Positions 54,171 through 55,373 of a stretch of DNA of 64,000 nucleotides are shown here, piece by piece. Under the pieces are notes generated by a model. That model saw only the letters and a list, made by a program, of their open reading frames with translations. It ran no database searches and was not told the origin of the DNA. The translations under genes were made by a program, and so were the position numbers. This DNA comes from Eledone cirrhosa (taxonomy: Eukaryota). The stretch lies in assembly GCA_964016885.1 (NCBI GenBank), contig OZ024751.1, positions 23,684,001-23,748,000 of the forward strand. Direction: 5' to 3'. Within the stretch, counting starts at the first letter, position 1; every line of letters starts with the position of its first letter.

Positions 54171-55373
54171 ATGCTCTTAGTAGGCTATTTTGTTGTGATT
54201 TTGACTGCGTTTATATCGAGAGTAATTTCCAGTCCAAATTACAATGATGAAAAAATGGTGCAACATAATTTATTATATAACTATAGCAAATATATACGAC
54301 CTGTTGAAGATTTGAGTAAAAGTACTGATATATATAGTTCCTTGCTTCTTCACACGCTCTATGACTTGGACTTTGGAAATAGCCTTCTTATGGTGCATTA
54401 TTTATTGAGGCATGTTTGGATCGACGAACGGATGAAATGGAATCCAGAGGATTATAACAACATTTCAAATATATACCTACCAAAACATAGTATATGGACA
54501 CCAAGTATCCTAATGTGCAATGCAATGTTGGAATCAGACGTTGATGAGAATTTTAACCAAGTAAAGATTTCTAATAATGGATGGGTAGAAATGTGGTCAT
54601 TTAAATTATTACATACTTATTGTCAAGTCAACGCATACACTTATCCTTTTGATGAACATAAGTGCGAAATTTACATGTGTATCGCTATGTATGAACCTCA
54701 ACATACACGAATTAAAACTCTCCTTTTTACTAATCTAAATTATACAGAAAATTACAAATGGTATATCCACATAGATGGTGAAGTTAATGGCATTGACGCT
54801 TCCTCCAGCTACGCATTTGCCTCAATATTCTTACGACGTAAAGTCACAGTAGGTAATATAGCGATGTTGAGCCCCTTAATAATGATGACCGTTTTAGTTA
54901 TATTTGTGTTTATTCTACCTCCTGAATCAGGAGAGAAGGTTTCTCTGGCTGTGACAATATTTACATCAAACGTCTTGTACCTTGTTCAAATAGATAAGAC
55001 TCTGCCAACAAATTCAAAATACCCTTCACTCTTTATGCTGTATTTAATGTTGTTATCAATGTCAAGTGGATTCGCCACACTTGGTTCAGTGGTTATAAAT
55101 AAATTGTATGTAAACCAATCAGCTAAAGAAAAGAAATCAAAGGTCTTCGACCAACATAATGCCAAAACTCACGGTAATGAAATTGCGGATGTTTCAGTAA
55201 TTTCCACGCCACATCCTTATCCTGTAATGACACAGGAAAAGTCAATATTAAAACGATGGTTTTGTATCCCCGACTACGTAAAACTCGATGACATTTTTCT
55301 AAAATTTAGCGTTGTATTAGGAATAATAGTTTCAATATTATTTATGTCTGCCTTGTTTATACCTCTAGATTAG
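54171..55373 (+). CDS. Chemotactile receptor (CRT-type), paralog 6, 400 aa; M2 9' Thr
   Basis: First ATG 54171; Cys-loop [33 protein letters not shown]; four TM segments; intact. Confidence 0.93.
   Translation: MLLVGYFVVILTAFISRVISSPNYNDEKMVQHNLLYNYSKYIRPVEDLSKSTDIYSSLLLHTLYDLDFGNSLLMVHYLLRHVWIDERMKWNPEDYNNISNIYLPKHSIWTPSILMCNAMLESDVDENFNQVKISNNGWVEMWSFKLLHTYCQVNAYTYPFDEHKCEIYMCIAMYEPQHTRIKTLLFTNLNYTENYKWYIHIDGEVNGIDASSSYAFASIFLRRKVTVGNIAMLSPLIMMTVLVIFVFILPPESGEKVSLAVTIFTSNVLYLVQIDKTLPTNSKYPSLFMLYLMLLSMSSGFATLGSVVINKLYVNQSAKEKKSKVFDQHNAKTHGNEIADVSVISTPHPYPVMTQEKSILKRWFCIPDYVKLDDIFLKFSVVLGIIVSILFMSALFIPLD

Follow-up and report, generated by a model that had tools for sequence, protein, structure and literature searches.

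A threonine at the 9' gate position of the pore helix in a chemotactile receptor gene from a tandem array of Eledone cirrhosa

The window analysed here, a 64,000-nucleotide stretch of the Eledone cirrhosa genome, carries seven single-ORF paralogs on the same strand (p1 to p7), and tblastn searches of all seven against the window revealed no further copy. On contig C11 the array as a whole comprises 13 genes of the CRT clade of chemotactile receptors (CRs), the "taste-by-touch" channels of octopus, at 23.618-23.772 Mb, followed by more distant CR-like genes. The genes and the main features of p6, the subject of this report, are as follows.

5942..43678, + strand: p1 to p5, five upstream tandem CRT-clade paralogs, all with Leu (TTA) at M2 position 9'
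54171..55373, + strand: p6, a CRT-clade CR subunit of 400 amino acids in a single exon, ATG to TAG, assigned from its open frame, Pfam, phmmer and AlphaFold2
54171..54230, + strand: likely signal peptide, residues 1-20, a hydrophobic N-terminus that aligns with the CRT1 stretch preceding residue 1 of structure 8EIS
54621..54665, + strand: intact Cys-loop, C151 to C165 (C-x13-C), with C151, P159, D161 and C165 invariant in alignment A1
54936..54998, + strand: M2 pore helix, 0' to 20', with E-1', S2', T6', T9', L13', V16', Q17' and K20'
54963-54965, + strand: 9' codon, ACA (Thr265), which is TTA (Leu) in 12 of the 12 other CRT-clade paralogs of the genome
57337..58539, + strand: p7, the downstream neighbour, with Leu9', a candidate partner subunit
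G000:C11:23750729-23752021: p8

A 163-aa ORF is duplicated between receptor genes of the window (24386-24877 and 37685-38176); its description as retrotransposon-like is unsupported, as Pfam gave no family for the first copy.

Pfam recognised both the ligand-binding domain (PF02931, E 7e-29) and the membrane domain (PF02932, E 3e-9) in p6. Among proteins of solved structure, its best relative is octopus CRT1 (9E6B, phmmer E 3e-152; 58% identity over the full length), followed by squid CRB1 (E 1e-38), with 5-HT3A and nAChRs ranking lower. The AlphaFold2 model of p6 (mean pLDDT 74.8) could be superposed on 8EIS over 290 aligned residues with an rmsd of 1.6 and a Z score of 27.4; the helices are present in the model, and its structural matches among nAChRs have Z scores of 25-28. 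The cation-selectivity motif PPESGEK is present, with Glu at -1', and AATAAA occurs at +323 and +425 past the stop codon. By its sequence, p6 is thus a Cys-loop cation channel subunit of the CRT clade. In agreement with this assignment, extracellular-domain trees put p6 among the relatives of CRT1, apart from the P0026/P0028 outgroup (SH-aLRT/UFboot 92.6/96), on its own long branch and with no supported sister within the CRT radiation. It is present as a single copy in its own genome, and no ortholog was recovered: no database protein exceeded 59% identity in a full-length search, a profile search or a search of 50%-cluster representatives; among shorter proteins covering residues 190-340 there was no ortholog, the one fragment from O. 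bimaculoides having Leu9'; and the best segments of 79 loci on JGI metagenome contigs were at most 46% identical to p6. It should be noted that the start context of p6 (54162-54173) reads acacataATG where p7 and p8 have acagataATG, which might, as a weak indication, reflect a lost 3' splice acceptor; p7 is without a pyrimidine tract.

The CRT clade, represented by Octopus bimaculoides CRT1 (8EIS, 9E6B), shares with p6 an intronless coding sequence in a tandem array, the fold and the pore residues at -1', 2', 6', 13', 16', 17' and 20', so that among the pore rings p6 departs from CRT1 at 9' alone, where CRT1 has Leu. Intronless CRs are described in the available text of PMC13174522. Members of the clade are further characterised by a hydrophobic orthosteric pocket that responds to poorly soluble ligands instead of acetylcholine, and by expression in the sensory epithelium of the suckers. 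The ligand pocket, by contrast, has been remodelled: W122, F124 and A152 of CRT1 are kept, whereas Y39, Y58, E190 and L191 are replaced by L, L, A and S, respectively, L153 by M, and the vestibule residue E104 by V. Since the pocket is remodelled relative to that of CRT1, the ligand of p6 is probably a different one. The idea that p6 is blind to ligand through the loss of Y39, Y58 and L191 is unsupported, these positions being variable across CRs generally. Furthermore, p6 is not the ortholog of CRT1, as p7 and p8 are closer to it (81/69); these two are its closest relatives in the genome, with 61-62% identity in the extracellular domain.

M2 positions were numbered from K0' (AAG, 54936-54938), a convention that we take to be the usual one and that agrees with L247 being 9' in alpha7. 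Counted in this way, ACA encodes Thr at 9' of p6 and TTA encodes Leu at 9' of all six other paralogs of the window, exactly as the original prediction had it. M1 to M3 of p6 align with CRT1 (9E6B/8EIS) without gaps and the 9' register is therefore unambiguous; moreover, conventional nAChR exons of the same genome (L027, L030) have Leu in the very column of the p6 threonine. Both observations lead us to reject a mis-numbered 9' position. Logan contigs from two runs, X1 and X3, cover 54165-55129 with 0 and 1 differences, the single one lying at 54258 and none at the 9' codon. When the reads were checked for Leu at this codon, the contigs of both runs read ACA instead, so that an assembly or base-call error is rejected. 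X1 and X3 come from one sample, possibly the assembly's own, and Thr9' is thus confirmed for one individual; four of the six listed runs were examined, and the RAD-seq runs X4 and X5, from other individuals, gave 2 and 1 reads, none over the codon. The run search brought up DNA or untyped entries and none of RNA, which speaks neither for nor against expression of p6. The original prediction had also argued that a base-call error was unlikely as two substitutions are needed. The two changes are indeed needed and an error is ruled out, but the double change is not by itself evidence of selection, because ATA (Ile) lies between TTA (Leu) and ACA (Thr), and Ile is tolerated at 9', where 3 of 202 M2 segments of the wider family have it. 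A-to-I editing of ACA could yield Ala (GCA) or the silent ACG, never Leu.

The 9' position was then compared across the family. In its own genome, 30 loci were read (one further match without a locus was left out) and 29 have Leu9', namely 26 CR-like loci and three conventional nAChR exons, with p6 the exception among 27 CR-like loci. Leu9' is likewise present in 29 of 29 database CRs (P0001-P0029). Across these CRs Thr9' is therefore confined to p6. The 202 M2 segments, which come from 171 of 177 wider-family proteins, have Leu (181), Val (12), Ile (3), Thr (3), Phe (2) or Met (1) at 9'; counted per protein, 144 of 150 representatives gave an M2 match, 130 of them with Leu only and 14 with some non-Leu residue. 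The Leu9' gate, a typical though not strictly defining feature of the family, is thus absent in p6 (Thr265). All three Thr9' segments of the wider family belong to a single snail gene model, KAH9500480.1 of Bulinus truncatus (P0051), in which three nAChR-like copies are fused and which shares with p6 a natural Thr9' in each of its M2 segments. It differs in being an uncharacterised hypothetical protein of a non-CR snail lineage whose M2 has Ile13', Asn16' and Phe17', and the two threonines presumably arose independently. Other representatives with an M2 resembling that of KAH9500480.1 have Val9'. A polar residue at 9' is therefore rare in molluscan nAChR-like expansions, though p6 is not the sole example; within the sampled CRs it is the only one. 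The titles and abstract openings searched made no mention of a naturally occurring Thr9' CR; the set of 235 CRs in the supplements of 10.1101/2025.10.28.685082, which lay outside this search, may include p6 or another Thr9' CR.

The 9' residue is not the only change in the membrane domain of p6, and the following sites are candidate second-site changes.

54855..54899, + strand: M1 changes I229N, T236L (Thr in 21 of 24 database CRTs) and T243V (Thr in 22 of 24)
54951..54953, + strand: 5' codon, GTG (Val261), Thr in 18 of 24 database CRTs and in 12 of 12 paralogs of the genome
55002..55004, + strand: 22' codon, CTG (Leu278), in the M2-M3 loop, Thr in 20 of 24 database CRTs

Besides 9', four conserved threonines have thus become hydrophobic (T236L, T243V, T5'V and T22'L), and I229N and S310N are also present. 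The pore context of CRs differs as well from that of the wider family, since CRs have Leu13' and Gln17' whereas Val13' (151 of 202 segments) and a hydrophobic 17' residue prevail elsewhere; with Leu13', the upper gate of CR pores may be stronger. Lys at -1' occurs together with Phe at 2' in three database proteins (P0005, P0013 and P0016). Glu at -1' favours cations. Two CR-like genes of the array, L022 and L023 (G000:C11:23919729-23924399, minus strand), have PPESKQK in place of PPESGEK and have lost this residue, and their ion selectivity may differ.

To assess the constraint on p6, departures from conserved columns were counted and branch omegas were estimated. L265T is the sole departure of p6 among the 22 near-invariant columns of alignment A1. 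In a second count over 37 CRT-clade sequences, p6 has four private changes at conserved columns (range 0-8), and the three besides 9' are conservative or peripheral. A three-taxon codon model of p6, p7 and p9 gave an omega for the p6 branch of about 0.24 over M1-M3 (p=0.0027 against 1), 0.20 over M1-M2 (p=0.011) and 0.49 over the mature protein (p=0.0064). By contrast, the value of 0.57 for the extracellular domain is not significantly below 1 (p=0.22). None of these omegas differs from the background, and counting methods agree. With its dS of about 0.3 the branch is long: when neutral evolution was simulated over that length, the frame stayed open in 0 of 4000 runs. These results show that the membrane domain of p6 is under purifying selection and, together with the intact frame, that p6 was constrained through most of its history. 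It is an old single-copy lineage and looks functional; a very recent loss of function is nevertheless conceivable, because the route from Leu through Ile leaves a single final transition to Thr.

Comparison of synonymous sites along the array points to homogenisation of the pore domain by gene conversion while the ligand domains diversify. Thus p7 and p1 differ at 27 of 89 synonymous positions in the extracellular domain and at only 4 of 48 in M1-M2 (p=0.003). Compared with p1-p5, both p7 and p8 are chimeric, with a CRT1-like extracellular domain at about 30% synonymous divergence and near-identity from mid-M1 to the C-terminus (4/48 and 9/100). The corresponding stretch of p6 has remained distinct.

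54840..55010, + strand: M1-M2 stretch of p6, not homogenised with its neighbours; against p7, 19 of 45 synonymous codons differ here and 10 of 82 from residue 281 on (Fisher p=0.0003)

It would be tempting to conclude that conversion was selected against at M2 to preserve Thr9'. We do not accept this explanation: p9, a paralog with Leu9', has the same tract boundary (16/43 versus 11/80), and the boundary in p6 is therefore not evidence of selection for Thr. Elsewhere in the array, p1-p5 and four upstream copies (L003, L004, L006 and L007) form a young nine-gene expansion with no counterpart among the sampled Octopus species, supported at 98.6/100 in one tree with three members and at 96 for all nine in another. 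Extracellular dN/dS reaches 1.5 within it (p1 versus p4), a value that suggests diversifying selection or mosaic conversion. The array also holds dead copies, namely a CR-like sequence with an in-frame TAG (G000:C11:23864049-23864681) and two 105-aa fragments (L024 and L025).

No gate residue of Cys-loop channels has been studied better than Leu at 9', and the L9'T mutation is routinely used in the laboratory. In alpha7, the L247T mutation at 9' shifts the acetylcholine curve 660-fold to the left, slows desensitisation, increases spontaneous openings and turns modulators (PAM) into agonists according to the available text of PMC4548482, which bears out both the site identity and the alpha7 precedent invoked by the original prediction. 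Exchange of the ZAC residue (L9'T, L9'V, L9'I) shifts potency 8-30-fold and yields 34-40% constitutive activity, and the same report adds that 9' effects are more subtle in some other Cys-loop receptors (PMC11359809). In the muscle nAChR, L9'S moves the EC50 by about one decade per mutated subunit, and L251T likewise produces a constant log step (10.1101/102194). For the annelid channel Alpo4, whose agonist is not known, PMC10338036 describes a combination of L9'T and M16'L that remained unresponsive to acetylcholine and to serotonin. Among CRs, CRT1, which has Leu9', shows no significant desensitisation to two agonists (10.1101/2025.03.03.641191); multimers form from CR subunits, and CRT1 and CR840 work as homomers (10.1101/2025.03.03.641191; PMC11526382). 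Because CRT1 already desensitises little with its Leu9', the slow-desensitisation part of the alpha7 phenotype may add little in p6. The alpha7 L247T, muscle L251S/T and ZAC L9'T mutants match p6 in the M2 position and, except for the serine of L251S, in the substituted residue. They differ from it in being laboratory mutations of otherwise unchanged channels, whereas the threonine of p6 is natural and accompanied by changes in M1 and M2.

Judged from sequence, the substitution to Thr9' in p6 is real, rare and well placed, and the gene that carries it is intact, constrained and part of a receptor family already known; the case concerns a single residue in one individual. From the family membership, the codon, its rarity, the intact frame and the purifying selection on the membrane domain, we infer the following steps. 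Replacement of the gate leucine by Thr would lower the energy of channel opening: the resting gate is kept closed by a hydrophobic ring of leucines, and each Thr9' subunit in a pentamer would take away one fifth of it. In a p6 homomer the unliganded current would then be raised and the dose-response shifted to the left, whereas one or two copies of p6 assembled with Leu9' neighbours (p1-p5, p7-p9) would provide graded gain control, with more sensitivity and little leak. The leak would likely be capped by the retained Leu13' and Val16' rings and by the co-changed M1 and M2 residues. By analogy with the engineered channels, we therefore lean slightly towards a functional p6 whose gating barrier is lowered: by itself it would form a leaky or sensitive homomer, and in heteromers it would sensitise the receptor in a dose-dependent way. 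The original prediction of a sensitising or tonically active subunit is partly supported. Against a lowered gate, every CRT sampled from other octopuses has Leu9', p6 retains Leu13' and Val16', the upper gate of CR pores may be stronger, the T236L, T243V, T5'V and T22'L changes could compensate, the Alpo4 double mutant is silent to acetylcholine and serotonin in PMC10338036, and omega in the extracellular domain of the p6 branch is not significantly below 1.

Compensation could go further, and T5'V, T243V, T236L, T22'L and I229N, together with the Leu13' and Val16' rings, might offset Thr9' altogether, leaving gating near that of the paralogs, re-tuned rather than loosened. Four Thr-to-hydrophobic changes at columns where 18-22 of 24 database CRTs have Thr would fit such an outcome, as would a branch old enough for co-adaptation under normal purifying selection and the tolerance of non-Leu 9' residues in 14 of 144 wider-family representatives. 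We nonetheless consider it rather unlikely, given that many wider-family segments have Val5' (69 of 202), so that it need not be compensatory, and that even conservative changes at 9' of ZAC gave about the same constitutive activity in the available text of PMC11359809. Quite improbable, in our judgement, is a recently silenced or non-assembling copy, in which p6 would have been functional for long, would then have lost expression or assembly, and would have fixed the single Ile-to-Thr transition by drift. The dead copies of the array show that such losses occur, the altered start context might weakly point the same way, and starting from ATA a frame that stays open and a change to Thr have a low but not vanishing joint probability (0.36 x 0.011 at 0.02 substitutions per site). 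However, the frame, the signal peptide and the Cys-loop are intact, the two AATAAA motifs are in place, a single near-invariant column has been lost, and a direct neutral change from TTA to Thr with the frame still open has a joint probability of only about 1e-5 to 3e-5 (0.02-0.3 substitutions per site). Finally, Thr9' might be a private or rare allele segregating in a species whose common allele encodes Leu or Ile. One sample supplies all the supporting sequence, yet the absence of a second contig version at the codon in both runs suggests homozygosity, with the reservation that rare variants are lost from contigs, and a young variant is unlikely to have involved two steps; we regard this explanation as very improbable.

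Returning to a functional subunit with a lowered gating barrier, a bolder form of it would make p6 a dedicated "amplifier" subunit, with a natural gain-of-function gate, an M1-M2 stretch kept out of conversion and co-assembly with ligand-specific paralogs. We think this unlikely; if it were true, the number of Thr9' subunits per pentamer would set chemotactile sensitivity and tonic firing separately from ligand specificity. Should the gate instead prove to be compensated, p6 would represent a natural set of second-site suppressors for L9'T, and a Thr9' background could in addition aid ligand finding for orphan CRs. Published work on CR diversification, in the portions available, focuses on the ligand pocket. 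If p6 is a natural, selectively maintained Thr9' CR, the family would also diversify its gating energy, which would allow combinatorial tuning of sensitivity in heteromers.
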